DNA of 37,763 nt from a virus. Taxonomy: Duplodnaviria; Heunggongvirae; Uroviricota; Caudoviricetes. The stretch's first letter is position 1; each line of letters starts with the position of its first letter. Below the pieces are notes generated by a model. The model saw only the letters and a program-made list of their open reading frames with translations. It searched no databases and was not told the origin of the DNA. This document shows, piece after piece, positions 3,592-27,846 of the stretch. A program made the position numbers and the translations under genes. The stretch is taken from IMG/VR virus record IMGVR_UViG_2522572023_000009. One strand, given 5' to 3'.

Positions 3592-6039
3592 TTAACCGTC
3601 ATGCATCATGCTGGCACGGGCGCGCGCACGTTTATCCCGCTCGTATTTTTCGAGCGCATCCTGTAACTGGCGGTCAAGCTGTGTCCCCGGCGCAGTACCA
3701 CCCGTCAGGCTGATGTGATATTCGTTTTTACTCTGGTCCACATAAGAGCGGCCAGCCGGTGCCGTGACCGGCTGATAAGCCTGATAGCCTGCATAAGAGC
3801 TGGTCGCCGGAATATAACCACCGGTGCCATACGTGGCGGCATGAGTCCTTGCGGCGGTCTGGTCAAGTGTGTCTGACTCTTTGTTGATAACACCGAGTTT
3901 TTCCAGTACCCAGTCAATACCGCTGCGCAGTTTGTTGAACGCATTAAGCGGCAGCATCAGCGCGTCAGCCAGCGCCTGCCCGAACATGACGCCCGTGTCA
4001 CGGCAACGGTTCAGGGTGTCCTGTGTGGATTTAACCGGGGCAATCAGGTTTGTAAACCACTGCCACGCGGCCTGTAACTTTTCGCCCAGCCAGTCAAACA
4101 CCGGCTTAAGTGGCGTGAAAAGTTCCCCCACCGGCGCAAATGCCGCTTTCAGCCCTTCAACCACACCGCCAAAGAATGCGCTGACAGGCTCCCAGTATTT
4201 ACGGATAAGCAACGCCCCGGCGACAATGGCGGCCACCACGGCCACAACCGGCCAGCTAATCGCCCCGATGGCCGTCATAACAGCACTGCCAACTGTCGTG
4301 AAGATTGCCCCCATTGCGCCTGCTGCCGCGATAATGGCATTGATGCCGGTGATAACCGGCCAGGCTACAAGACCAATGGCACCGATGATGCCAGTAAGCG
4401 CCAGCGCGCCACCGACAATGAGGCCGATGGTTGACGCCAGTGATTTGTTTTTCTGGATCCAGCCGTCGAGTTTTAACACATACTTTGTGGCCGTCTGAGT
4501 GAGCTTACGCAGTGCGCCTTCCTGCTGGTCAAACAGGTCAGTCCCCACCGCCTCATAAGCGGACTGAAACTCCTTAAAGTCACCGCCGAGGTTGTCCTGC
4601 ATGATATTTACCAGTTCTGCGGTCTTTCCGTCTGAGGCTTTAAACGCAGCGGTCAGTTTGTCCAGCTTTCCGGTTGAGGCGGCAGTCATCAGCACGGCGG
4701 CGGCTGAACTGGCCTCCTCCCCGAAAATGGTTTTCATGTATTCAGCCTGCTGGGCAGTACCGAGCCGGTTTTTCTCAAAACTGGCCTGCATTTCTTTCAG
4801 AATGGTAAATACTGGTCGGGTGTTTCCCTTGCTGTCTGAGGTTTTCACACCAAGCTCTTTGAGTGCATCCCATGCTTTTCCCGTCGGTGCCTGCAGGCGG
4901 CTTAACACGGCACGGCTTCCCGTCCCCGCCATTGAACCGGTAATTTTTGCATCATGCAGCGCCCCGACCATTGCGGCTGTTTCTTCAATGCTGACACCGG
5001 CATTTTTTGCCACAGGTGCGGCATAGGTCAGCGCATCGCTCATGCCGTCAAAATCGGCGGCGGTTTTGTTCATCGTCATGGAGAGAACATCCCCGATATG
5101 AGCGACCTTATCGTTTGAAAGCTGAAAGGCGGATTTCATCCCCATCAGCAGGGCGGCGTTTTCTTCCATCGTGCGACGGTTCGCCAGCGCCATATTCAGC
5201 GTGACCGGCGTTGCCGCCTGAATGGCATCAACATCCCCACCGGCTTTCGCAATGATAATCTGCGCACCGGCAGCATCATCCGCCGAGGCGGCTGTGTTGT
5301 CGCCGAGCTGGCGCGCCTGCTTGCGTAGTGCAGCCATTTCGGCGGAGTCTTTTGCCACACCGAGCACGGCCTGCAATTCTGAGTTTTTCTGCGCAAACTC
5401 ATAACCGGGCATCAGCAACTTAACTCCGGCCATCGTTCCCGCCGCCGCAATCCCCACACCGGCAGCGCCCACTGAGGCCATATTTCCGGCCAGTTCCTTG
5501 CCTGCCTGATAACGCTGTTTTACTGCGTTAAGTTTTGCCTGTTGCGCACTGACACGCGCCAGCGCGTCACGCTGACGGTTAAGCTGTGCGGTGGTTTCAC
5601 TGATACGGTTTTTCAGTCCCTGCTCATCACGTGCAAGATTGCGGGTATTAATTCCCACAACGGCCAGTTCCCGCTGCTGGCGTTTAACGGAATCCGTCAG
5701 GCGGTTATATTTCGCCTGTAAGTCCTCCGCCGCACGCTTCGCGGACTCCAGCACTTTCGCCTGAGCACGTGTCGGACGTTCGGTGTTTTTAAACTGTGTG
5801 GCAAGGGCTTCGGCCTCCTGCCGTGCCTTTTCAAGTGCATGACCAGTCACGGCGAGCTGTGCGCTGGTCTTGCGGAATCCCTCAATACGGGATGCGTGAC
5901 CGTTCAGCTCGCGCAGTGATTTTTGTGTTTCCCGGATATCCCCCGACAGCGACTTGCTCGCTGTGCGGATGGATTTAAACGGGCGGGATGCCTGGTCAAC
6001 AGCCCTGAGCAATACCTGTAATTTTACATTGTTACTCAT
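3592..6039 (-). CDS. T: gpT tail tape-measure protein, 815 aa
   Basis: Length matches P2 gpT; the protein is Ala/Gly-rich and coiled-coil-like with hydrophobic segments. Confidence 0.9.
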   Translation of the reverse strand: MSNNVKLQVLLRAVDQASRPFKSIRTASKSLSGDIRETQKSLRELNGHASRIEGFRKTSAQLAVTGHALEKARQEAEALATQFKNTERPTRAQAKVLESAKRAAEDLQAKYNRLTDSVKRQQRELAVVGINTRNLARDEQGLKNRISETTAQLNRQRDALARVSAQQAKLNAVKQRYQAGKELAGNMASVGAAGVGIAAAGTMAGVKLLMPGYEFAQKNSELQAVLGVAKDSAEMAALRKQARQLGDNTAASADDAAGAQIIIAKAGGDVDAIQAATPVTLNMALANRRTMEENAALLMGMKSAFQLSNDKVAHIGDVLSMTMNKTAADFDGMSDALTYAAPVAKNAGVSIEETAAMVGALHDAKITGSMAGTGSRAVLSRLQAPTGKAWDALKELGVKTSDSKGNTRPVFTILKEMQASFEKNRLGTAQQAEYMKTIFGEEASSAAAVLMTAASTGKLDKLTAAFKASDGKTAELVNIMQDNLGGDFKEFQSAYEAVGTDLFDQQEGALRKLTQTATKYVLKLDGWIQKNKSLASTIGLIVGGALALTGIIGAIGLVAWPVITGINAIIAAAGAMGAIFTTVGSAVMTAIGAISWPVVAVVAAIVAGALLIRKYWEPVSAFFGGVVEGLKAAFAPVGELFTPLKPVFDWLGEKLQAAWQWFTNLIAPVKSTQDTLNRCRDTGVMFGQALADALMLPLNAFNKLRSGIDWVLEKLGVINKESDTLDQTAARTHAATYGTGGYIPATSSYAGYQAYQPVTAPAGRSYVDQSKNEYHISLTGGTAPGTQLDRQLQDALEKYERDKRARARASMMHDG

Positions 6040-6515: not shown

Positions 6516-7034
6516 TCACAGGCCGATATTTCGGCGGTGTTGCTCCAGCCGGTCGACGCCGTTCACCTTCTCAATCATGTTGATGGTGTCGATTTCGACC
6601 AGCTCCTTACCGTCCATCGTCAGCCGGAAATAAGTACAAATCACCGGGAGTTTCGATTCGGTATCCTCTCCCTGTTTACCCTCTCCGGTGTCGACTTCTT
6701 TCTGACGCCCACGCATGACCACTTCGACGGCCACCGTTTCGCCGGTATCGTCGCGCTGGTAAGAACCAGCAAAACGAATCGGTACGGCATCAGCACTGGT
6801 TGCAGCGTAAAGCTCCCAGATAACCGAATCCGGGAATCCACCGAGCGACCACTCCATTGACAGCGCATCATCATCAAGGCCGAGGTCTACCGGTGCGCTG
6901 CCGTTCATTCCCGCACCGCGATAATTTTCGAGCTTACGGGTCAGTTTTGGCAGCGTGACGGAATTTGCAACGCCCTGATAGCTGTAGCCGTTCAGAAAGA
7001 CATTCATGTATTTGAGTTTGCGCGGCATTGCCAT
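6516..7034 (-). CDS. FII: gpFII tail tube protein, 172 aa
   Basis: Length and synteny match P2 FII. Confidence 0.88.
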   Translation of the reverse strand: MAMPRKLKYMNVFLNGYSYQGVANSVTLPKLTRKLENYRGAGMNGSAPVDLGLDDDALSMEWSLGGFPDSVIWELYAATSADAVPIRFAGSYQRDDTGETVAVEVVMRGRQKEVDTGEGKQGEDTESKLPVICTYFRLTMDGKELVEIDTINMIEKVNGVDRLEQHRRNIGL

Positions 7035-7046
7035 CGGTCAGGCTCC

Positions 7047-8237
7047 TTAATTGCTGTTAACCGAGGTGACCAGATTTGCCAGGTATTTATCGGTGATACG
7101 CTGGCGCAGGGTCAGGTTTTCGAGAGGAGGCACCGGGGTATAGTCGTAGTCGATATACAGTTTTCCGGCCTTGAGGGTTTCCGCATCGTTGGATTCTTCG
7201 CTGAACCAGCAGGTCGCATCCACGATATAGCCGTTTGTTTTCAGCTCACGGAATTTGGCATTGATGCCGTCAACGATGTCGCGAATCAGCGTTGCGGTGA
7301 TGGGCTTGTCCACCGCCCACATGTGCGCCTCAGCCATCGTATCGGCCAGCACCTGCGCGGTGCGGGTGTAGTTTTCAAAGAGGAAAAGCGGGTCATCAGA
7401 GCAGGTACGGTTACCCCAGAATCGGAAACCGTCACGGCGAATCAGCGTAGTGACGCCTGACTCGTTAAGCAGGTCAGCATCGGTGCCGGACTCCTGCAAA
7501 TCCCAGAATACAGATGCGCTGATGCCGGTAACACCGTTCACCCCGACATTGGACAGCGTTTTATGCCAGCCCTGCTCCTGGTCGATTCTGGCACGCAGAC
7601 CCAGCGCACGGGCGGTGGCATACGCGGTGGCGGTGGTGCTGGTGACCGTATCCCATGCGAGGAAATCCGGCCAGATGACCATCAGCTCACGCTGGCTGAA
7701 ATTCTGGCGGTAGGCTTTCACCTCGGAAATGGTTTTACAGCCCCATGCGCTGATATATCCGAAAGCGCGCAGCTTCTGACAGACTGATGCCAGTGCAACA
7801 GCCACCTCTTTGGTATCCAGTCCCGGCACGCCGAGAATACGCGGTTTAACACCGGTTACCGACTCCGCCGCCAGCAGGGCTTTCAGTCCGGTGTACTGAC
7901 CGTTTTCGTCGGTGGTGCCGATGATATTGGAAACGGTCTGCGCGAGTTTCGTTTCCTCGTCGTCGCCGGTGCCGTCTTCCACACGCACAACAACGGTGAC
8001 CGGTTTTGACTGGTCAGCGATGGCCTGCAACGATGCCGCCAGCGTGCCTTTTTTACCGGCCTTTGCAATTGCGCTCTGCACATTGGTAATCAGCACCGGT
8101 TTATTGAGGGGGAAGGTTTCCGCATCCGCATCGCTGGCCGTGCAGACCATACCGACAATGGCAGTGGATACTGTGGAAATGACGCGGGTGCCGTCGTTAA
8201 TCTCCAGCACCTGCACGCCGTGATGAAAGTCACTCAT
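7047..8237 (-). CDS. FI: gpFI tail sheath protein, 396 aa
   Basis: Length and synteny match P2 FI. Confidence 0.88.
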   Translation of the reverse strand: MSDFHHGVQVLEINDGTRVISTVSTAIVGMVCTASDADAETFPLNKPVLITNVQSAIAKAGKKGTLAASLQAIADQSKPVTVVVRVEDGTGDDEETKLAQTVSNIIGTTDENGQYTGLKALLAAESVTGVKPRILGVPGLDTKEVAVALASVCQKLRAFGYISAWGCKTISEVKAYRQNFSQRELMVIWPDFLAWDTVTSTTATAYATARALGLRARIDQEQGWHKTLSNVGVNGVTGISASVFWDLQESGTDADLLNESGVTTLIRRDGFRFWGNRTCSDDPLFLFENYTRTAQVLADTMAEAHMWAVDKPITATLIRDIVDGINAKFRELKTNGYIVDATCWFSEESNDAETLKAGKLYIDYDYTPVPPLENLTLRQRITDKYLANLVTSVNSN

Positions 8238-8686
8238 CCGTTTAACTCCGTGGTTAATGGGTGCAACTATTTTCTGTTGTGCAGAGCATGAGACGCTATT
8301 TGACCTGGCTGGTCAGTGGATGAAACAACAGATAAAGAAAAGGTGGGCAATCAGTCGACCTGTCGTCATTTGCATTCACTAGAATTCAACATACATCCTA
8401 CATAGTCAAAACACTATCAAATCTGATTGCCTGCTGTGAGCCAAAAGCAAACCTCGCCAGTGAAAGGTAGAGGTAACTTAAAAGACACATAAACTGAAGT
8501 TTATCTATAGAGCTCCACCTCAGGGGGCTTTATCTGGCAGTTGGAAAATCAGAGCTTGCGCAATGAAAATTTTGATATAAAATCAACACGTTAAACACTT
8601 TCAAACAATTAGTAATTTTCTATATTCAGCAACAAACACGAATAATACATTGACTTCTCTAAATAAACCCCAAAAGGAACATATGA

Positions 8687-8899
8687 ATGCTTGAATGGTT
8701 AAATAACTATATAGGTACTGATTGGGCCACATATCTTGGAGTGTTTCTGGCGATTTTGTCATTAATTTGGGGAGGAAGCAAAGCTCTTAAAAAAAAATCA
8801 ATCAACCAAAAAGCAAAAACCAACGGAGGCATAGTTATTCAGGTTGGTGGTAATTTCCAAGGAGAAAATAACAATGAATCAAAAAGCTCAAGCAAATGA
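8687..8899 (+). CDS. Cargo ORF1: small protein (70 aa) with one N-terminal transmembrane helix and a Lys/Asn/Ser-rich tail
   Basis: ATG at 8687 follows an AAGGA ribosome-binding site with ~9 nt spacing. The protein has a hydrophobic helix (WATYLGVFLAILSLIWGG). The gene is AT-rich, lies on the strand opposite the late operon between FI and G, and contains an A9 homopolymer (about 8789–8797). Confidence 0.5.
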   Translation: MLEWLNNYIGTDWATYLGVFLAILSLIWGGSKALKKKSINQKAKTNGGIVIQVGGNFQGENNNESKSSSK

Positions 8900-9686
8900 G
8901 AACTCAACTATAATACAGGTTGCGGGAAGTTTAAATCAAGGAATCAGCTTTGCCGACTGCGAAAGATTATTCAATTTATTGCTAAAAGAGAACTTCCCAA
9001 AACTCGAAGCCATTGCAGCCTCAACAGCAAAGAGAAATGTTGACACCTTAGTCAAAGCGACATTCGAAAAAATTGATTCAAAGATTAATCAAATCAACGT
9101 GGAAAAACTTGCTCAGCCTGATGTACAAAGTACTTTTAATAGCGCAGTTCAAGGCGTTGCTAGAAAGGGTTCCAAAATAGATATCGATTTACTGGCCGAC
9201 TTACTGGAAGCCAGAATCGAAAAAGATAATACTAACTATATTGATAATTGCATTGAAGCGGCAGTGGAGATGGTGCCCAAACTAACCAGTGATATGCTAG
9301 TAATCTTGCCAGCATTGTATTTTATTCAAGAACTGGAATGGAGTAACCCTACTGAAATTGATAATGTTTATGGCTTAATCTATGACCGTTTTTTATCGCG
9401 AGGTGGTACTATATCACATTCAAAACTCAAGACGATGGCTTCTATTGGGGTGGGCATTTACGTCAATGTTATAGGAAGCAATACCTTTGAAGGCATGAAG
9501 AAAAAATACTCTTGCTTACAAGTAATTAACGCAGAATCAAAATATCCGAGAATGCATCAGGCCTTAAACTTCTATGACCAAAAAGACTTACATCAACTAA
9601 CACTTACCACTCCGGGCCAAGTAATAGCAATCAAAATGCTGGAAGAAATATTTCCCACAATAAATTTGCGCGATTTTTTGCAGTAA
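8844..9686 (+). CDS. Cargo ORF2: hypothetical soluble protein, probably 270 aa from the ATG at 8874
   Basis: The track start at 8844 is a TTG; an ATG at 8874 is preceded by AAGGAG at 8859–8864. The gene overlaps ORF1 by 26 nt. The protein is predicted largely helical and has no motif I recognise; the gene is AT-rich. Confidence 0.6.
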   Translation: MVVISKEKITMNQKAQANENSTIIQVAGSLNQGISFADCERLFNLLLKENFPKLEAIAASTAKRNVDTLVKATFEKIDSKINQINVEKLAQPDVQSTFNSAVQGVARKGSKIDIDLLADLLEARIEKDNTNYIDNCIEAAVEMVPKLTSDMLVILPALYFIQELEWSNPTEIDNVYGLIYDRFLSRGGTISHSKLKTMASIGVGIYVNVIGSNTFEGMKKKYSCLQVINAESKYPRMHQALNFYDQKDLHQLTLTTPGQVIAIKMLEEIFPTINLRDFLQ

Positions 9687-9751
9687 ATTTAGTATTAGCC
9701 AGAGTTCAAACTGATTGATATATTTTAGAGCTCGCTCATCCACTCTTATAA

Positions 9752-9775
9752 ACTAGGGTTACTGTAGTAACCCTA
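9752..9775 (+). terminator. Perfect 10-bp-stem hairpin downstream of the cargo ORFs (putative terminator)
   Basis: CTAGGGTTAC-TGTA-GTAACCCTAG; the following sequence is T-rich but has no clean U-run. Confidence 0.3.
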
Positions 9776-10027
9776 GCTGGTTCATTCTGTTAAAAAAATA
9801 ACTCCATCGTCTTTTAATATCATAGGACGTGTTCGATATCCATTTCTAAAACTAATCCGTCACTCGAACACATTAAGGTACTAAAACTAAGAATGATGGT
9901 TCTAACGTAACCCACGCACCTAAACATCTCTAAAAGAGAATGGTCCACATCCGGCACAGAGCGAACAGCTGGATTAGGTTTGACTCTGTGCCATAGATAT
10001 GTAATCTCACACTAGAGCTTATACAAC

Positions 10028-10555
10028 TTATTGCGGCATTTCCGGCCATTCAGGATTTGCAGGATCCACACGACTGACCAGAACACTGTAGCGTTCCCAT
10101 GCTTCCAGTCGGCTGCGTTCCTCCTCTGTTGCCATATTTAGCCTGACAGCGCGCTCCAGCAGCAAAATCACGGATTCAGCTTCGGAAAGTAAAGTTGCCT
10201 TTTGTGATTCTGCCAGTTGATGCTGTTCGTCTGCCGTATAAATCCGCTTAATCACGGCACCATCCTTAAACATCCATTTACCTGAGTCATCAGCACGTCG
10301 GTTGGCGGTAATATCAGGAACCTCGACAACGCTAAAACCTTCAGGGTTAAGCGTTGAAGCATCTCTGGTGATGCCGACAATTATATTATTCTCGTCGTAA
10401 ACAATCTTTATCGTGTCTTCCTGAAAATTACTTACTTCCTCATACCAGTTTTTTCCGTCTTCAGACCATAACCAGATAACATCAAAATTTTTTGTCAGTT
10501 GATATTGAGCAACAGTTTTGGGATTACCCGCAGTAATATTTTTTAAATGCTGCAT
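10028..10555 (-). CDS. G: gpG-like tail fibre assembly chaperone, 175 aa
   Basis: Length and position (downstream of H) match P2 gpG. GC content is lower than in the neighbouring structural genes, suggesting a swapped host-range module. Confidence 0.8.
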
Positions 10556-10558
10556 AAA

Positions 10559-12487
10559 TTACACCTGTGCGACGTTATACCATGTGCCATTGATGTATTT
10601 TTGTATTGGTCTGAATACTGCGGGGTCATCACCATCGACTTCACCGACAATACCAAGCCCTGTAATTACATGGCCTGATTTTTCATACATCACACCTTTT
10701 TGCATAGTCTGAACAACACGTGTGCCCAGGCGAATATCTCGTACATAGCGAGAATCCGATTCAGCTTTGGTATATGCACCAACATCTCCCGCAGAGGGTT
10801 TGCGGGTTGTGGTGTAAAACTCTGACCAGTCAGCCTCAAATCCATAACCATCACGTGCTGAACGATAAAAAATACCGCCGTTCTTATAATTCACACGGAA
10901 CTGTACGGCAGGGCAACTCCCCGCATTCATATTGAAGTGGAGGATTAATGTCGATGCACCGCTGATATCTGCATCATAAACACCGCTATTCCAGTTCCAG
11001 CCAACAGCTTTATCATTTGCAACCCTGCTTCCTGTTTGCCCTAAAGCAAATGCAGGCTGCTGGTTTTTCGTGTTGTAGTCTCGTCGCCAGCCGGGGGCAT
11101 AAGCATCACCATGATTAATATAAGTGAATTGAGCGTTAGTGGTGCCGCCTCCGGTAGAAGTGCTTGGTGTTGTTACACGGATGGTCATGGCACCTTTATT
11201 ACCCATAACCTCAATAACGCAACCTGCAAGATGAATAGTTCCACAGCCAGTATCGGTAATAATTTTATTATTGCCGTATGACCATGAACATTTGCACATC
11301 CAGTACGGATGATTAAATGCACCACGGGAATCCAGCCATTCAATAAACTGAGCGGTTGTCCAGTTTCCGGCTTCAGTGCTCAAAGCGCCGCTATAAGCAC
11401 GACAGGCACCGATATTTTTCGTGAAGGTATCCTTTCCCGGAATATCCGCACCGTTCTGATCTTTCTGAAGACGTTTTTCAGCATTGTCATAGGCAGACTT
11501 CACTGCTTTTGGTGTTGCGGCCAGCGTTTCAGAATCGCTGTTGATGGCACTATTGAGCTGAACAAGACCTTTCCGCGCCGTGGTGGCGTCCTGTGCAGTG
11601 TATTTCCCGTTAGCAAGGTCATACGCTGTCTTAACCGCCTTTGGCGTTGCCGCAAGCGTTTCAGAATCGCTGTTGGTGGCGCTACTGAGCTGGACAAGAC
11701 CTTTTCGCGCTGTGGTGGCGTCCTGTGCAGTGTATTTCCCGTTAGCAAGGTCATATGCTGCCTTTACCGCTTTTGGTGTTGCGGCGAGCGTTTCAGACGT
11801 GCTGTTGGTGGCGCTACTGAGCTGGACAAGGCCTTTTCGCGCTGTGGTGGCATCCTGCGCAGTGTATTTCCCGTTAGCAAGGTCATAGGCGGCCTTTACC
11901 GCTTTCGGCGTTGCGGCCAGTGTTTCAGACGTGCTGTTGGTCGCGCTGCTTAACTGAGTAAAACCTTTTGCGGTCAGCGAGGCGTCCGGGTGACGTCGTG
12001 ACTGTTCGTGCTCTGCAATTTTGTCATCAACATAATCCTGCGTTGCCATCACCGTTGTGGTGTCAATGGTCAGCGCCACTGAGGCCACACTGCTGACGAT
12101 GATGACCATACGGCAGGTCTGCGAACGTCCTGAGCCTTCGGCAAGAGCTGGCTTATAACTTTCGGCCATGTTCGCCACGGCAATTAACGTTCCCGCATCA
12201 TCGTACAGGCCAAGCTCACGCATCCAGAAACCGCCCACCTCCGGCGGAATAACCAGCTCTGCGATAATATAATTACTGTTTCGTTTGTCCTGGCTGATTT
12301 TGTTCAGCGCATGTCGCCAGACTTCATGGATAAGCCCGGTCTGTCCGGCATCCGGGACAGGCAATTTACCACCGCCATCCCCGACGGCCATCGTGGTAAT
12401 GTTGACCTTCCGCCCTCCCGGCGCGGTTGCCGCTGCCAGCTTTGCTGCACCGGCAGTGGTGATAACGGTTTTGAATTTTGTGCTCAT
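10559..12487 (-). CDS. H: gpH tail fibre protein, 642 aa, with internal tandem repeats and a divergent C-terminal domain
   Basis: The N-terminus is P2 H-like. Four tandem 44-aa repeats (KG[FL]xQLSSATNS[TD]SETLAATPKAVKAAYDLANGKYTAQDATTAR) are of the phage tail-fibre repeat type. Confidence 0.88.
   Translation of the reverse strand: MSTKFKTVITTAGAAKLAAATAPGGRKVNITTMAVGDGGGKLPVPDAGQTGLIHEVWRHALNKISQDKRNSNYIIAELVIPPEVGGFWMRELGLYDDAGTLIAVANMAESYKPALAEGSGRSQTCRMVIIVSSVASVALTIDTTTVMATQDYVDDKIAEHEQSRRHPDASLTAKGFTQLSSATNSTSETLAATPKAVKAAYDLANGKYTAQDATTARKGLVQLSSATNSTSETLAATPKAVKAAYDLANGKYTAQDATTARKGLVQLSSATNSDSETLAATPKAVKTAYDLANGKYTAQDATTARKGLVQLNSAINSDSETLAATPKAVKSAYDNAEKRLQKDQNGADIPGKDTFTKNIGACRAYSGALSTEAGNWTTAQFIEWLDSRGAFNHPYWMCKCSWSYGNNKIITDTGCGTIHLAGCVIEVMGNKGAMTIRVTTPSTSTGGGTTNAQFTYINHGDAYAPGWRRDYNTKNQQPAFALGQTGSRVANDKAVGWNWNSGVYDADISGASTLILHFNMNAGSCPAVQFRVNYKNGGIFYRSARDGYGFEADWSEFYTTTRKPSAGDVGAYTKAESDSRYVRDIRLGTRVVQTMQKGVMYEKSGHVITGLGIVGEVDGDDPAVFRPIQKYINGTWYNVAQV
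11468..11968 (-). repeat. About 3.8 tandem copies of a 132-bp coding repeat inside H
   Basis: Near-identical 132-bp units are visible in the DNA and in the H translation (residues ~174–340). Confidence 0.85.
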
Positions 12488-14996: not shown

Positions 14997-15782
14997 ATGG
15001 TCAGCTATAATGTGACTAATGTGTGGGAGCTAATCGTTTTTTTTCTTTGTAGCTTTGCAGTATTAGCATTTTTTAGCTTTGGTAAAAGTAACCTTATGAG
15101 GCTTATTGCACATTATTTCAATTTTGGATATTCAGACAAAAAATTAAAAAGACTTGACCGCGAGTGGCGCGACATTCAACCATTTAAAATAATTAACGGA
15201 ATCAATGTATCAGGCATTGAAAATGTGAGAATGATACAGCAGGAACTGATTGATGGAAAACTAAAAACATCGTATTTTTTCCTTACTCGCATCTGGGGTG
15301 ACATAACAAAACCACCACACATAATTAAAACAATAATTGTAATTCTGGCCAGTATTTTTTACATTCTCCTCGCATGTTACATACACAACGAACAATCCGC
15401 TATAGTAAGGGATGCCATAGGCATACCATATAAAAACATGATGTACTATGTTTATAGTGACAAAGTTCTTTTATCCTTCAAAAATAAAGCTGTTGAATTT
15501 AATAAAACTTATAGCCTTGCCGATTGCAAGAGACTGCAAAACGTATTTATAAAAGACACACTTCCTGAGATCGCCTGCAATAAGCTATTACAGCTAAACG
15601 AGGAGGACTCCGAATGGTTAAGTCAGGAGATTAAAGATAATAACAGCCACAAAAAAGCATTATTAATACTATCCCTCGTCTATTTCACTTCAGGTCTGGT
15701 TATATTCCTGTCATATACAAAATTCTTTTACGCCAATAAGAAGGTTTTAGAATACAAAGCATCAAATAAAAATCACTCATAA
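14997..15782 (+). CDS. Cargo membrane protein, 261 aa, about three predicted transmembrane helices, unknown function
   Basis: An AAGGAG ribosome-binding site sits 7 nt upstream of the ATG. Hydrophobic helices lie near residues 10–30, 120–140 and 220–242. The gene is strongly AT-rich, lies between V and S on the strand opposite the late genes, and is followed by a terminator. Confidence 0.65.
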   Translation: MVSYNVTNVWELIVFFLCSFAVLAFFSFGKSNLMRLIAHYFNFGYSDKKLKRLDREWRDIQPFKIINGINVSGIENVRMIQQELIDGKLKTSYFFLTRIWGDITKPPHIIKTIIVILASIFYILLACYIHNEQSAIVRDAIGIPYKNMMYYVYSDKVLLSFKNKAVEFNKTYSLADCKRLQNVFIKDTLPEIACNKLLQLNEEDSEWLSQEIKDNNSHKKALLILSLVYFTSGLVIFLSYTKFFYANKKVLEYKASNKNHS

Positions 15783-22226: not shown

Positions 22227-23999
22227 ATGACCATCACCACAGACACCACTCTTTTACACGACCCGCGTCGTCAGGCGGCGCTGCTGTACTGGCAGGGATT
22301 TTCCGTGCCGCAGATTGCCGCCATGTTGCAGATGAAACGCCCGACGGTGCAGAGCTGGAAACAGCGCGACGGCTGGGATAGCGTTGCCCCCATCAGCCGT
22401 GTCGAAATGAGTCTGGAAGCGCGGCTGACCCAGCTCATCATCAAACCGCAGAAAACCGGCGGTGACTTCAAGGAAATTGACCTGCTCGGACGCCAGATTG
22501 AACGACTGGCACGGGTCAACCGTTACAGTCAGACCGGCAACGAGGCAGACCTTAATCCGAACGTCGCTAACCGCAACAAAGGCGGGCGTCGCAAACCGAA
22601 AAAGAATTTTTTCAGTGACGAGGCCATCGAAAAGCTGGAGCAGATTTTCTTTGAGCAGTCTTTCGAATATCAGTTGCACTGGTATCGCGCCGGGCTTGAG
22701 CACCGCATCCGCGATATCCTGAAATCCCGCCAGATTGGCGCGACATTTTATTTTTCCCGCGAGGCGCTGCTGCGCGCCCTGAAAACCGGTCATAACCAGA
22801 TTTTTCTGTCGGCCAGTAAAACGCAGGCGTATGTGTTCCGCGAATACATCATCGCCTTTGCCCGTCTGGTTGACGTTGACCTGACCGGTGACCCGATTGT
22901 CCTGGGCAATAACGGCGCAAAACTGATTTTTCTCGGCACCAACTCCAACACCGCGCAGAGCCATAACGGCGACCTGTACGTCGACGAGATTTTCTGGATC
23001 CCGAATTTTCAGGTACTGCGTAAGGTGGCATCAGGTATGGCCTCACAGAGTCACCTGCGTTCGACCTATTTCTCCACCCCGTCCACGCTGGCGCACGACG
23101 CCTACCCGTTCTGGTCGGGTGAACTGTATAACCGGGGACGCGCCAGCGCCGCCGAACGCGTGGAAATCGACGTCAGTCATAACGCCCTTGCCGGTGGGCT
23201 TCTCTGTGCGGACGGCCAGTGGCGACAGATTGTCACCATTGAGGACGCCCTGAAAGGTGGCTGCACGCTGTTCGACATTGAGCAGCTCAAACGCGAAAAC
23301 AGCGCCGACGATTTTAAAAACCTGTTCATGTGTGAATTTGTTGACGACAAGGCGTCGGTGTTCCCGTTCGAGGAGCTGCAACGCTGCATGGTCGACACGC
23401 TGGAAGAATGGGAAGACTATGCACCCTTTGCCGCCAATCCGTTCGGCTCCCGCCCGGTATGGATTGGTTACGACCCGTCACACCGTGGCGACAGTGCCGG
23501 ATGCGTGGTGCTGGCACCGCCGGTGGTGGCCGGTGGCAAATTCAGAATACTTGAGCGTCACCAGTGGAAAGGCATGGACTTTGCCACTCAGGCTGAATCC
23601 ATCCGCAAACTCACCGAAAAATACAACGTCGAATACATCGGTATTGATGCCACCGGCCTCGGTGTCGGCGTGTTCCAGCTCGTGCGCTCGTTCTATCCCG
23701 CCGCGCGCGACATCCGCTACACGCCGGAAATGAAAACCGCAATGGTGCTCAAGGCAAAAGACGTCATCCGCCGTGGCTGTCTGGAATATGACGTCAGCGC
23801 CACCGACATCACCAGCTCGTTTATGGCTATCCGCAAGACCATGACCAGCAGCGGACGCAGCGCCACCTATGAGGCCAGCCGCAGCGAGGAAGCCAGCCAC
23901 GCCGACCTCGCCTGGGCGACCATGCACGCCCTGTTAAATGAGCCACTCACCGCCGGTATCAGCACTCCGCTGACATCCACCATTCTGGAGTTTTACTGA
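22227..23999 (+). CDS. P: gpP terminase large (ATPase) subunit, ~590 aa
   Basis: The track ORF begins at a TTG; the ATG at 22227 (MTITTDTTLLHD) gives 590 aa, as in P2 gpP. It is transcribed divergently from O, as in P2. Confidence 0.9.
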   Translation: MTITTDTTLLHDPRRQAALLYWQGFSVPQIAAMLQMKRPTVQSWKQRDGWDSVAPISRVEMSLEARLTQLIIKPQKTGGDFKEIDLLGRQIERLARVNRYSQTGNEADLNPNVANRNKGGRRKPKKNFFSDEAIEKLEQIFFEQSFEYQLHWYRAGLEHRIRDILKSRQIGATFYFSREALLRALKTGHNQIFLSASKTQAYVFREYIIAFARLVDVDLTGDPIVLGNNGAKLIFLGTNSNTAQSHNGDLYVDEIFWIPNFQVLRKVASGMASQSHLRSTYFSTPSTLAHDAYPFWSGELYNRGRASAAERVEIDVSHNALAGGLLCADGQWRQIVTIEDALKGGCTLFDIEQLKRENSADDFKNLFMCEFVDDKASVFPFEELQRCMVDTLEEWEDYAPFAANPFGSRPVWIGYDPSHRGDSAGCVVLAPPVVAGGKFRILERHQWKGMDFATQAESIRKLTEKYNVEYIGIDATGLGVGVFQLVRSFYPAARDIRYTPEMKTAMVLKAKDVIRRGCLEYDVSATDITSSFMAIRKTMTSSGRSATYEASRSEEASHADLAWATMHALLNEPLTAGISTPLTSTILEFY

Positions 24000-25033
24000 T
24001 GAGCAAGAAAAAAGGGAAAACACCGCGACCAGCGGCAAAAACAATGACCGCCAGCGCCCCGAAAATGGAGGCATTCACCTTTGGTGAGCCGGTGCCGGTA
24101 CTCGATCGCCGTGACATTCTGGATTACGTCGAGTGCATCAGTAACGGCAGATGGTATGAGCCACCGGTCAGCTTTACCGGTCTGGCAAAAAGCCTGCGTG
24201 CTGCCGTGCATCACAGCTCCCCGATTTACGTCAAACGTAATATTCTGGCCTCGACATTTATCCCGCATCCGTGGCTTTCCCAGCAGGATTTCAGCCGCTT
24301 TGTGCTGGATTTTCTGGTGTTCGGTAATGCGTTTCTGGAAAAGCGTTACAGCACCACCGGTAAGGTCATCAGACTGGAAACCTCACCGGCAAAATATACC
24401 CGCCGTGGTGTGGAAGAAGATATTTACTGGTGGGTGCCGTCCTTCAACGAGCCAACACCTTTCACGCCCGGCTCCGTGTTTCACCTGCTGGAGCCGGATA
24501 TCAATCAGGAGCTGTACGGCCTGCCGGAATATCTCAGCGCCCTTAACTCTGCCTGGCTGAATGAGTCGGCCACGCTGTTCCGCCGCAAGTATTACGAAAA
24601 CGGCGCACATGCCGGATACATCATGTACGTCACCGATGCCGTGCAGGATCGCAACGATATCGAAATGCTCCGCGAAAACATGGTGAAGTCGAAAGGCCGC
24701 AACAACTTTAAAAACCTGTTTCTCTATGCCCCACAGGGGAAAGCCGACGGCATTAAAATTATCCCGCTCAGTGAAGTGGCAACGAAGGACGATTTTTTTA
24801 ATATCAAAAAAGCCAGCGCCGCTGACCTGCTGGACGCGCACCGCATCCCCTTTCAGTTGATGGGCGGCAAGCCGGAGAACGTCGGGTCGCTGGGCGATAT
24901 TGAGAAAGTGGCAAAGGTCTTTGTCCGCAATGAGCTTATCCCGCTACAGGACAGGATCCGCGAGATAAACGGCTGGCTCGGCCAGGAAGTCATCCGCTTT
25001 AAAAACTACTCACTGGACACTGACAACGGCTGA
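23999..25033 (+). CDS. Q: gpQ portal protein, 344 aa
   Basis: Length and synteny match P2 gpQ. Confidence 0.9.
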   Translation: MSKKKGKTPRPAAKTMTASAPKMEAFTFGEPVPVLDRRDILDYVECISNGRWYEPPVSFTGLAKSLRAAVHHSSPIYVKRNILASTFIPHPWLSQQDFSRFVLDFLVFGNAFLEKRYSTTGKVIRLETSPAKYTRRGVEEDIYWWVPSFNEPTPFTPGSVFHLLEPDINQELYGLPEYLSALNSAWLNESATLFRRKYYENGAHAGYIMYVTDAVQDRNDIEMLRENMVKSKGRNNFKNLFLYAPQGKADGIKIIPLSEVATKDDFFNIKKASAADLLDAHRIPFQLMGGKPENVGSLGDIEKVAKVFVRNELIPLQDRIREINGWLGQEVIRFKNYSLDTDNG

Positions 25034-25345: not shown

Positions 25346-27367
25346 TTATAATTTCCTCAACAATTTCCCATTGTTCTTATCAAAGGATATCATTGTATAG
25401 TCATACCCTTCTAATGCCTCTTTTAAGACATTTTCATCTTCTGATGTAGCAAAAATGATCTGCCCTTGTCCTTTTGTTGTTTCTGCAGCATCTTTAAGTA
25501 ACTCGGCAAAACTTACTTTATTTGCTTCTTGTTGACGAGGCTCATCAAACACAATCAATCCAGGGTGATTTGTTTGAAATTTAGAACCAACAACAAATAA
25601 ACTTATTAAATAACCCCAAATGATTCTTATTCCATCACTAGCTGATGTGTCAAAACCTATATCATATCCTTCCCTAGTAGGTAAGTAATTATCTTCTGAT
25701 ATTGACACAAGTTTAGAATCAAAACTTGTAAAATTATATTTTTCTAATCGTGCAACGACTTCTTTATTAAGAAATTTTAACTTATCGGCATCATTACGCG
25801 ACAAGAAATTATCTGGCAATCCTTTTCTTTTCGCGATAAGCTTTTTATATCTACGGTGTAATGAATCCAACTCCAGTCTAATGTCCAATATACTTTTAAT
25901 GCCATCGTTAATGGCATTAATTTTATTCTCAATGTTTATTTTACGTCTCAGAAACTCCTCCTGAACAACCATTGAGGGATATTTTGACTCCCTTAATGCA
26001 TTAATATCAACTCTAATCTTGGCTATTTCCCCCTCTAAATCACTCCTCTCAACATCTTTAAGCTTTAATTGCTTTTCACTATCCGACAGAACAAACTCAA
26101 ATGCTTTTACTTGCTCTTTAATAAAGTTCAAACTATCTTCATATGTCATCAGATTTTCTTGCGATGAAAAACTTAGCAAATTATCATTATAACTTGCACC
26201 ACAAGTCGGACAAATATTTGACATTAAATCTGTTGACTTATACGCATCCGAAGATGATATTTTCTTTAAATCTTCATACTTCCTTTTATCTTCCAACAGA
26301 TTATACAATCTGTTTTTGGTCGCCTGAATTTGATATTGAATATAACTTCTATGCTCACAAATCTCTTTAATCTTTAATTCCAGAGAGTTAATTTCATCAT
26401 TTTTTTGACCTAATAACTTAACCACTGATAATTGTAAAGTTTGTTCTTCTTGCTCACCAAGAGTGTCAAACTTAATTTCTTGCAACTCTTTTTCCAGTTC
26501 ATTACGAACATCAACAATAGATCTAACGACACTACCATTTTTAATAATCAAATCTATCTTATAATGATCAAATTTTGCCACTGGTTGTTCAGGAATCCCT
26601 GTGACAACTGACGACAATTTAGAAGCAATAACTTCTGCATTGTGTTTAATTAACTTCCAATCATGATAAATAATATCAAGTTCATTTCTTAACGAACTAC
26701 GCAATAAAATATTATCATTAACATCAAGAGACATTAAAAATTCTAGAGCTCTTTTCTTTGGCTCTTTAATTCCAAATTGTGTTGGTACAGTCGCCATAAT
26801 TGACGACCATCCTTTTTTTTGCTCAACATACCATGCAGGGAAAAGTACGGATGGATAAAGAATAGTGTCCTTCCCATTATGGTTTGGAACATTTGGCAAA
26901 CTCCAACCTATAAAATCAGCTAACCACTTATAGAAACCACGTTCCCTTTCAGTATCGCCCTCTCTATGTAAAAAATAAGTACCACTCTTACTTTTTACAT
27001 TATTCTTCTCATCTATATAAATAACATTATTATTATCGTGACCGATAATATTCCTTTTCAAAGATGCTTCTATTCCCTTATGATTCTTTATTTTTAGCAA
27101 AACATAAGATGATATTACACTAACTTCAACATTATCTTTTGTCGTTAGTGCTCTAGTCAAAGATGGAGGGAATGGGATTTTTCCAGAACCGACACCTAAT
27201 GCCTTTTCCATCCCAAGTGCATATGCAATCCCATTCATGCAAGTTGATTTACCATGAGAATTCTCAACTCTTAATAAAAACAAGCCATTTGAAAAAGGTA
27301 TACTAACACCATAACGCCCATCCGAAGTATTTGCTACTAACTCCAATGAAATAATTTCCAACGACAT
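25346..27367 (-). CDS. Cargo gene 3: SMC/Rad50-like ABC ATPase with coiled-coil and CxxC hook, 673 aa (candidate LmuB/DdmC-like)
   Basis: An N-terminal P-loop (ENSHGKST), a long Lys/Glu/Leu-rich coiled-coil region with a central CPTC motif, and a C-terminal Walker B/D-loop (LIVFDEPRQQ). There is no nuclease domain after the ATPase C-lobe. The gene is strongly AT-rich. Confidence 0.7.
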   Translation of the reverse strand: MSLEIISLELVANTSDGRYGVSIPFSNGLFLLRVENSHGKSTCMNGIAYALGMEKALGVGSGKIPFPPSLTRALTTKDNVEVSVISSYVLLKIKNHKGIEASLKRNIIGHDNNNVIYIDEKNNVKSKSGTYFLHREGDTERERGFYKWLADFIGWSLPNVPNHNGKDTILYPSVLFPAWYVEQKKGWSSIMATVPTQFGIKEPKKRALEFLMSLDVNDNILLRSSLRNELDIIYHDWKLIKHNAEVIASKLSSVVTGIPEQPVAKFDHYKIDLIIKNGSVVRSIVDVRNELEKELQEIKFDTLGEQEEQTLQLSVVKLLGQKNDEINSLELKIKEICEHRSYIQYQIQATKNRLYNLLEDKRKYEDLKKISSSDAYKSTDLMSNICPTCGASYNDNLLSFSSQENLMTYEDSLNFIKEQVKAFEFVLSDSEKQLKLKDVERSDLEGEIAKIRVDINALRESKYPSMVVQEEFLRRKINIENKINAINDGIKSILDIRLELDSLHRRYKKLIAKRKGLPDNFLSRNDADKLKFLNKEVVARLEKYNFTSFDSKLVSISEDNYLPTREGYDIGFDTSASDGIRIIWGYLISLFVVGSKFQTNHPGLIVFDEPRQQEANKVSFAELLKDAAETTKGQGQIIFATSEDENVLKEALEGYDYTMISFDKNNGKLLRKL

Positions 27368-27368
27368 A

Positions 27369-27845
27369 TTAACCCACCTGAAATATTTTATTAATGTTAG
27401 TTTCGGACAGTCCAGCCTTATGTTTATTTAGCACCAACCTTTCTTCTTTGAACACATCAAGAGAAAGCAATTTCTCAGCGACCTTAAGCCCCTTTTCATT
27501 TATTTTGAACGCTCGTTCATTTCTCAAAATAAAATCCTCTGCTAATAATAGCTGTATTGCTCTATCTAAAGTTGGATCCAATCTTACTTCAGGCTTTAAA
27601 CCTTCTTTGTTTAAAAGCCAGAATTCAAACATTGCTTCATTATTCTCTGACTTTAACATCCAATTAATTAAATGAAGTTTTTTTAAAGAACAGCAACCAG
27701 CTCTCCCTGTGACAAGGAATATTATCAGCAACAAACTGCAACGCCACAATGGTCTCATATCACATGGCAAATGTTCAGGTCGTTTATTAAACGTAAACGG
27801 CCTTCCTATTATTTCATCTATCGTTATATGCATTTGCTTTTCCAT
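27369..27845 (-). CDS. Cargo gene 2: small hypothetical protein, 158 aa (candidate middle component)
   Basis: Tightly coupled to its neighbours (1-nt gaps on both sides), on the same strand and AT-rich; no motif I recognise. Confidence 0.6.
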   Translation of the reverse strand: MEKQMHITIDEIIGRPFTFNKRPEHLPCDMRPLWRCSLLLIIFLVTGRAGCCSLKKLHLINWMLKSENNEAMFEFWLLNKEGLKPEVRLDPTLDRAIQLLLAEDFILRNERAFKINEKGLKVAEKLLSLDVFKEERLVLNKHKAGLSETNINKIFQVG

Positions 27846-27846
27846 T

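Follow-up and report, generated by a model that had tools for sequence, protein, structure and literature searches.

A P2-like prophage (IMG/VR virus record IMGVR_UViG_2522572023_000009; Caudoviricetes), analyzed here as a stretch of 37,763 nucleotides (the window), harbors a bona fide cargo module of two genes at the Z/fun hotspot, between the sheath gene FI and the fiber assembly gene G. The first gene, ORF1, encodes a small protein with a predicted transmembrane (TM) helix and the second, ORF2, encodes a larger protein of the LPO_1073/Vpar_1526 family; copies of one peptide motif are found at the C-terminus of ORF1 and at the N-terminus of ORF2. Comparison of related loci indicates that this motif duplication is a conserved, co-evolving core feature of the family and not an incidental local tandem duplication. 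The two proteins very probably act together through the motif, and the module is likely to be an anti-phage or conflict system. The full mechanism proposed below, in which ORF2 would serve as a sensor or regulator and ORF1 as a membrane-active effector, is given a probability of roughly 0.45.

The motif shared by ORF1 and ORF2

A preliminary description of this DNA had noted a duplicated peptide motif at the gene junction, and this was confirmed: aligned locally, the C-terminal end of ORF1 and the N-terminal end of ORF2 scored 39 (z = 4.4, p = 0.003 relative to shuffled sequences). Motif similarity within the locus was significant in 14/14 loci tested (z = 4.1–10.9). When 17 ORF1-type tails and 8 ORF2-type heads were placed in one alignment, the motifs fell in the same columns and shared an invariant Gln; the 25 sequences gave the consensus Q.Q....NS..IQ(V/A)GGD. 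The same description had reported a degenerate tandem DNA repeat across the junction. Two blocks, each 75% identical, do occur there (8792–8823 against 8865–8896, with a spacing of 73 nt, and 8837–8856 against 8913–8932, with a spacing of 76 nt), but Tandem Repeats Finder did not call the 73/76-nt repeat as an array.

Independent divergence of the two copies would equalize the similarity of cognate and noncognate motif pairs. Cognate pairs instead had a mean of 50, compared to 34 for noncognate pairs (permutation p < 1e-5 with 14 lineages and 0.002 with 7), and this excess argues for co-evolution or concerted evolution. In the motif pair matrix, the diagonal was the row maximum in 7/14 lineages. 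The covariation is branch specific: in one branch both copies read IQV(G/A)G, in the other QAG(G/R)D; examples of cognate pairs include GIQVGGN/SIQVAGD, ISIQAGGDVHIG/TAIQAGGDVNIG, YQAGRDINI/YQAKRDIII, and TQAGRDVHV/IQAGRDVHY.

The core tetrad is IQVG in ORF1 and IQVA in ORF2, and QAGG or QAGR in the broader family. The IQVG core is similar to the (I/V)Q(I/V)G tetrad of RHIM and BASS3, a similarity that is taken as a lead only. Chou-Fasman β propensity is maximal at IVIQV and TIIQV. Amyloid signaling motifs are reported to be enriched in Q, N, G, V, and I and depleted in P and L (and K) (bioRxiv 10.1101/2020.01.06.895854). The composition of the present motif fits this bias in its proportions of G (15%), Q (12%), N (10%), V (9%), I (7%), L (3%), and P (0%), but not in that of K (9%). 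Two of the 25 motif-bearing sequences gave weak matches to Pfam EAD10 (PF19954; best E = 4.3e-4). A search of PDB with the motif profile returned camelid nanobody N-termini only (best E = 0.0095), which were taken to reflect chance or convergence. The matched nanobody segment is a strand-turn-strand in immunoglobulin domains and shows at most that such a conformation is possible.

Family-wide pairing, natural fusions, and genomic settings

ORF1 had been described as a 70-residue protein with one TM helix, and the prediction is upheld by a hydrophobic stretch at residues 13–30 (Kyte-Doolittle 17-mer mean of 1.76). A basic KALKKKS segment comes next, so ORF1 is predicted to be a single-pass protein with a cytoplasmic C-terminus. 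A Pfam scan identified no domain in ORF1. The RefSeq coding sequences coincide exactly with ORF1 and ORF2, both genes have the good ribosome-binding sites originally described (Table 1), and the AAAAGGA block at the ORF1 site is kept in Escherichia coli TUM14664. Comparison with three relatives gave dN/dS values of 0.16–0.20, indicative of purifying selection on both genes.

Neither protein had been matched to anything in the preliminary description; for ORF2 this proved to be wrong. ORF2 matches NCBIfam NF045477 with 179.3 bits (cut-off 45; E = 1.1e-52) over hidden Markov model positions 1–255 of 257, as well as PHROG 19542 (E = 1e-22). It belongs to the LPO_1073/Vpar_1526 family (NF045477; precomputed Pfam assignment PF28206, "Vpar_1526"; RefSeq agrees), which is named but uncharacterized. 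Among 1.84 billion cluster representatives (50% identity), 1,149 members were identified with a family profile at E ≤ 1e-3. No model in PADLOC-DB v2 matched ORF1 or ORF2 (E ≤ 1), and literature searches turned up no description of the pair. The only paper found that names either family locus tag is a Veillonella proteome study, where Vpar_1526 was detected in the whole-cell, membrane, and surface fractions of V. parvula (PMC5491611). An AlphaFold2 model of ORF2, built with 28 homologues, has an all-α fold (pLDDT 84, pTM 0.77) preceded by the motif (residues 1–21), which is disordered in the monomer (pLDDT <50). Foldseek returned nothing significant for this model in PDB or BFVD. The near-invariant positions across the broad family are limited to Q, G, P, A, and L, a pattern that speaks against enzymatic activity.

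To examine the generality of the pair, loci were drawn from genomes, metagenomes, and viral contigs, about 30 of which had readable upstream DNA, down to 26% identity (numbered with the prefix L below; representative proteins carry the prefix P). Every locus with sufficient upstream DNA contained a small membrane ORF directly upstream of the Vpar_1526 gene, encoding 59–88 residues with one or two hydrophobic helices and the motif at the C-terminus; the downstream Vpar_1526 protein carried a matching motif at its N-terminus in all loci examined. The pair was found in Citrobacter, Salmonella arizonae, Motilimonas, Thorsellia, a metagenome-assembled genome of Campylobacterota, Aeromonas, Fibrobacter (26% identity to ORF2), and a distant branch of 11 IMG/VR prophage contigs.

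Of the 150 best representatives, about 10% exceed the others in length, and several of these are natural fusions. P0032 is a single chain composed of an ORF1-like TM segment, a motif, a second motif, and the body, while P0036, P0037, P0092, and P0172 each contain a TM segment, a single motif, and the body. In the AlphaFold2 model of P0032, the body is very confident, residues 33–86 (with both motifs) are unstructured (pLDDT <50), and residues 12–32, the segment equivalent to the ORF1 TM, form a helix (pLDDT about 50). Eight other representatives (about 400–470 residues) possess an N-terminal domain instead of the membrane segment, followed by a motif-like stretch and the body. This domain has invariant C..C, H-I, N-L, and C positions and sub-threshold matches to HNH_2, and is consistent with an HNH nuclease. 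Swappable N-terminal killing domains are typical of defense sensors. In the window, the repeat spacing is 3n+1 nt and ORF2 lies in the +1 frame relative to ORF1, so deletion of one repeat unit (73 or 76 nt) would give an in-frame TM-motif-body protein, computed to be 307–308 residues long. A single recombination event thus separates the split form from the fused one.

The insert was originally described as an AT-rich pair of genes between FI and G that is antisense to the late operon, and coordinates, GC content, and strand all agree with that assignment. GC content drops to 0.34–0.38 between FI and G from about 0.55–0.58 in the late genes, and ORF1 and ORF2 are both on the plus strand, opposite to the late operon. 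The first 217 bases past FI match other P2-like phages and include a homologue of the "right inverted repeat" of P2-EC53. With repeat homologues at both flanks, the cargo is delimited to about 8451–9952 (~1.5 kb), the classical Z/fun position. The module thus resembles P2 Z/fun in its genomic position, flanking inverted repeats, orientation against the late operon, and low GC content, but the sequences are unrelated and the match to other P2-like phages is confined to the flanks. The prophage belongs to E. coli O145:H28; the region is 100% identical in strains RM12761 and RM13516 and 99.9% identical in C325. The cargo is rare at the Z/fun site, occurring in 3/5,426 complete E. coli genomes. 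In a fourth carrier, TUM14664, a copy with 84% identity adjoins an integrase in a separate island. Rfam gave no match within 8200–10100, and promoter and terminator scans identified no more sites than in shuffled sequence. The sole terminator-like element, a strong and perfect hairpin between the convergent ORF2 and gene G (Table 1), lacks a canonical U-tract and was missed by the terminator scan; it may be a bidirectional terminator or the remnant of a recombination site.

Outside the window, the module was found in several other settings. A second P2 cargo hotspot, adjoining the portal gene Q, carries it in L029–L036. In TUM14664, the island contains the integrase, a PD-T4-3 GIY-YIG protein (E = 3e-140), PDC-S56, and the module, and in Citrobacter the module is in an island adjoining integrases. 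It is also present in a satellite-like element (int/cargo/HTH_17/DUF927), directly after hsdM-hsdS in two type I restriction-modification (RM) loci (L018 and L021), beside a HATPase_c_3 protein in Fibrobacter L008 (with type I RM matches in the neighborhood), between an IstB-like gene and a terminase gene in a Thorsellia prophage, and on a Zot-encoding (inovirus) contig. The preliminary description had proposed a defense or exclusion candidate. The recurrence of the cargo module in both P2 hotspots, PD-T4-3 islands, and RM operons supports its candidacy. Context and architecture, as read from sequence, favor a role in defense or exclusion.

Additional features were observed in these loci and elsewhere in the window. 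The TUM14664 island (L002; 483–2872 and 7698–8519) holds PDC-S56 candidate genes and the PD-T4-3 (GIY-YIG) gene, together with fragments of phage genes. In the Fibrobacter lineage, two extra conserved genes are located directly 3′ of the Vpar_1526 gene, within or adjoining type I RM loci (L008 6599–8254; L018/L021 3834–5498); these encode 367–370 and 181 residues without Pfam or PADLOC matches, the larger being 72% identical between loci, and they may be added components of the system. The P2 old/tin hotspot of the prophage in the window, adjoining portal gene Q (23999–25033), is occupied by a complete Lamassu system. A third AT-rich insert (14997–15782, plus strand, GC 0.37) is situated among baseplate and tail genes and contains a 261-residue ORF antisense to the late genes; this ORF has no PADLOC match and may be another cargo gene. 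The tail fiber gene H contains four tandem copies of a ~38-residue unit (...SSATNSTSETLAATPKAVKAAYDLANGKYTAQDATTARKGLVQL...), and these give rise to a spurious long ORF on the opposite strand (11309–11953).

Table 1. Positions of the module, its flanks, and other genes of the prophage in the window
Feature	Position	Strand	Remarks
FII	6516–7034	−	Tail tube
FI	7047–8237	−	Sheath; FI-side neighbor of the insert
FI-side cargo boundary	8399–8450		P2-EC53 Z-region "right inverted repeat" homologue
ORF1 ribosome-binding site	8674–8679	+	AAGGAA, 7 nt before ATG, read from sequence
ORF1	8687–8899	+	70 residues; N-terminal TM helix, basic linker, C-terminal motif; RefSeq WP_001704939.1
ORF1 TM helix (predicted)	8723–8776	+	WATYLGVFLAILSLIWGG; codons 13–30
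A9 homopolymer	8789–8797	+	ORF1 Lys35–37; allele specific
ORF1 motif copy	8804–8863	+	NQKAKTNGGIVIQVGGNFQG; residues 40–59
ORF2 ribosome-binding site	8859–8864	+	AAGGAG, 9 nt before ATG, within ORF1, read from sequence
ORF2	8874–9686	+	270 residues; disordered N-terminal motif and all-α body
ORF2 motif copy	8877–8942	+	NQKAQANENSTIIQVAGSLNQG; residues 2–23; predicted disordered in the monomer
Hairpin	9753–9776		Perfect 10-bp stem, 4-nt loop; CTAGGGTTAC-TGTA-GTAACCCTAG; ΔG −15.2 kcal/mol, z −3.3
G-side cargo boundary	9953–10055		P2-EC53 Z-region "left inverted repeat" homologue; overlaps the 3′ end of gene G
G	10028–10555	−	Fiber assembly; other flank of the insert
H	10559–12487	−	Tail fiber
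Lamassu cargo	25346–28767	−	Three genes, GC 0.32–0.40; LmuB E = 1e-98, LmuC 2.5e-23, LmuA 1e-29 (PADLOC)

A proposed mechanism and its rivals

The module is envisaged as a two-gene conflict (anti-phage) system carried as prophage cargo. ORF2 would be the sensor or regulator, with its all-α body behind a flexible ~21-residue motif rich in G, Q, N, and β-branched residues, and ORF1 would be the effector, a single-pass inner-membrane protein whose cytoplasmic tail carries the co-evolving motif copy. The two would be coupled by homotypic motif assembly. A phage cue would lead ORF2 bodies to oligomerize, allowing their N-terminal motifs to stack into a β assembly that would recruit or template the ORF1 tails; the ORF1 TM helices would then cluster and damage the membrane, resulting in abortive infection or premature lysis. 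In the HNH variants, killing would occur by DNA cleavage instead. In this scheme, we infer the interaction of the motif copies, the triggered oligomerization of the body, the β or amyloid assembly, the membrane damage, and the anti-phage phenotype.

Several observations weigh against this mechanism. Part of the diagonal excess in the motif matrix stems from structure at the subfamily level, the ORF1 of the window does not match the EAD10 profile, and none of the 25 motif sequences matches Pfam RHIM (PF12721) at E ≤ 10. ORF1 is without a Bell/HeLo-like domain. The conserved Q, G, P, A, and L residues of ORF2 give no indication of a ligand and its fold has no match in PDB or BFVD, so the label "sensor" comes from architecture alone. 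No convincing plus-strand σ70 promoter was detected upstream of ORF1, and tblastn did not find the ORF2 subfamily in 50,697 cultured phage records. Finally, the motif is kept in cis fusions, where templating between two proteins is unneeded; its retention fits constitutive docking or oligomerization as well as a triggered switch.

Because of this retention, a membrane-tethered exclusion complex is a serious rival, although it is considered unlikely. In that case, the pair would be a constitutive split membrane protein in which the motifs pair by β-strand complementation and tether ORF2 to the inner membrane; the complex would stop a competing phage at DNA entry or some other early stage and would not kill the host, as P2 Z/fun does with T5. 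The single-chain TM-motif-body proteins P0036 and P0037 show that a permanently tethered form is viable, the fused and split forms are separated by one 73/76-nt deletion, the locus is the classical position for exclusion genes, and Vpar_1526 is found in membrane fractions of uninfected V. parvula (PMC5491611). However, the HNH-motif-body variants suggest a destructive effector rather than a passive block. The motif is also strongly conserved in the cis fusions, though a tether needs no specific sequence, and it is predicted to be unstructured in the fusion monomer.

Two further explanations are improbable. The module might be a non-defense moron that affects lysogenic conversion or envelope physiology, through stress tolerance, the timing of prophage lysis, or a surface change. 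Other cargo at the same P2 site is annotated as a "putative lysogenic conversion protein," and a moron would be in keeping with the lack of a known defense model for either protein and with the novel fold of ORF2, but not with the existence of nuclease-fused variants or the recurrence of the module at independent defense-type sites (both P2 hotspots, type I RM operons, and PD-T4-3 islands). A toxin-antitoxin or addiction pair that stabilizes the prophage or island, with ORF2 restraining a toxic ORF1 via the motif and no phage sensing, is slightly less plausible still. The overlapping, translationally coupled operon of a small hydrophobic protein and a larger partner is compatible with this interpretation, as is the presence of the pair on many mobile elements. 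Against these points, most type II pairs have the opposite gene order and size relation, neutralization by a labile partner is hard to reconcile with the covalent fusions P0032, P0036, and P0037 and the HNH fusions, and the family sits specifically in defense hotspots and RM operons. The distinction from the proposed conflict system is not absolute, as many toxin-antitoxin systems act in defense.

The preliminary description had also suggested slippage at an A9 tract in ORF1. The tract is exactly where it was placed and exceeds every other homopolymer of the 37.8-kb window in length, but relatives have AAAAAATAAG or CGCAAAA at this site and A9 in none of them, and its length is the same in four copies (RM12761, RM13516, C325, and one IMG/VR contig). 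A change to A8 or A10 would merely truncate ORF1 ahead of the motif. Phase variation at A9 was therefore rejected as a family feature. The 26-nt overlap between ORF1 and ORF2 contains an A5 run (TCAAAAAGC) and, with ORF2 in the +1 frame and natural fused proteins known, could be imagined to generate a fusion by frameshifting; since only 4 nt overlap in L007 and none in L024 and L027–L036, a programmed frameshift was likewise excluded as a family feature, leaving a phase-variable or frameshift-regulated gene as a very improbable explanation.

Within the proposed conflict system, the suggestion that the assembly involves truly amyloid-like templating is a tentative one. Equally tentative is the concept of a minimal, widespread amyloid-like immune module, in which a RHIM/BASS-like 21-residue motif on a 270-residue sensor that is neither NLR nor TGP would template its counterpart on a 70-residue single-pass membrane protein, which would kill the infected cell by clustering. 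To our knowledge, amyloid or EAD-type coupling of sensor and killer has been shown experimentally in bacteria for Bab/Agp only, and other cases are predictions that mostly concern the NLR, vWA-MoxR, and TGP systems found in multicellular bacteria. If true, prion-like templating would be a common defense currency in ordinary unicellular bacteria and phages (>1,000 clusters at 50% identity), and the module would be the smallest known sensor-effector pair of its kind, convertible to a single chain by one recombination event. It would also provide a function for a Pfam/NCBIfam family that has none and identify a system missing from PADLOC-type annotation. At ~1 kb, the system is well suited to studies of infection signaling by short motifs, of split versus fused forms, and of the cue for the all-α fold.

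Comparison with known systems

Abi-α (EF2833, DUF4393/PF14337) from Enterococcus faecalis prophage 6 is a single gene that causes premature lysis of infected cells (PMC6356687). Like ORF2, it is prophage encoded, helical, and about 270 residues long, and the UniRef entry of P0003, a 77%-identical homologue of ORF2, is named "DUF4393 domain-containing." However, three Pfam scans of 28, 10, and 10 family members gave no match to PF14337 (E ≤ 0.1–1) and PF28206 was the sole Pfam family in 82/82 homologues listed; homology to Abi-α, as judged by these profiles, was rejected. DUF2806 is reported to be distantly similar to Abi-α (PMC6356687). Alignment of a DUF2806 (PF10987) protein to the Vpar_1526 profile with hhalign gave a probability of 1.3%, with only the C-terminal LTxVG..A aligned. 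This protein, of 286 residues and followed by a 78-residue ORF, comes from Aeromonas veronii (L040; JBRWYS010000012.1), where the two are located at 3844–4950, 1 kb upstream of an ORF1/Vpar_1526 pair.

In the effector-associated domain (EAD) coupling principle proposed by Kaur, Burroughs, Iyer, and Aravind (PMC7159879), one copy of a small non-enzymatic module is found on a core protein, mostly at the N-terminus, and another on the effector encoded by an adjacent gene; adjacent copies are most alike, and the same effector is fused to the core in other members. All three of these features are seen here, with a motif on both adjacent genes, an excess of cognate similarity, and direct fusions. 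The differences are that the ORF2 core is not an NTPase, vWA-MoxR, or TGP protein and that the ~21-residue motif is shorter than a typical domain.

A related layout is shared by Bell/NLR pairs with BASS motifs and the fungal HET-S/NWD2 effector/receptor pairs (Dyrka et al., bioRxiv 10.1101/2020.01.06.895854). There too, a membrane-targeting effector with a C-terminal motif is encoded beside a receptor with an N-terminal motif, in collinear and often overlapping genes, and the motif is of the same length and, lysine apart, of the same composition bias. The module in the window shows this arrangement, with a motif of ~21 residues at the C-terminus of ORF1 and the N-terminus of ORF2 and a 26-nt gene overlap. 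In contrast to those receptors, ORF2 contains only PF28206, without NB-ARC or NACHT, and ORF1 has no Bell/HeLo domain. The hosts are also different, being mostly unicellular Proteobacteria, Bacteroidota, and others, together with phages, rather than multicellular Actinobacteria and Cyanobacteria.

Another close comparison is with Bab/Agp of E. coli, where a 20-residue BASS11 motif is common to a 109-residue effector and a 1094-residue TPR-GreA/B-C-PIN sensor; the motif forms amyloid and transmits the infection signal, and an abortive infection phenotype was shown experimentally (Ibarlosa et al., bioRxiv 10.1101/2024.11.07.622273). Proteins of the TPR-GreA/B-C-PIN type, the Agp class, have EAD10 as their N-terminal adaptor (PMC8195603); EAD10 probably corresponds to BASS11. 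The Bab/Agp system differs from the present one in that ORF1 has 70 residues and a plain TM helix in place of the Bell ("MEPIS") domain, and the ORF2 family includes cis fusions that keep the motif. The two are alike in layout. Both consist of adjacent collinear genes in prophage or defense hotspots: the upstream gene encodes a small protein that carries a hydrophobic helix N-terminally and a ~20-residue motif C-terminally, and the downstream gene encodes a larger, soluble product that starts with the same motif; in both, the motif is rich in G, N, and Q, with glycines between short β-prone stretches. The Vpar_1526 family would apply this two-gene principle to components that are wholly distinct and far smaller.

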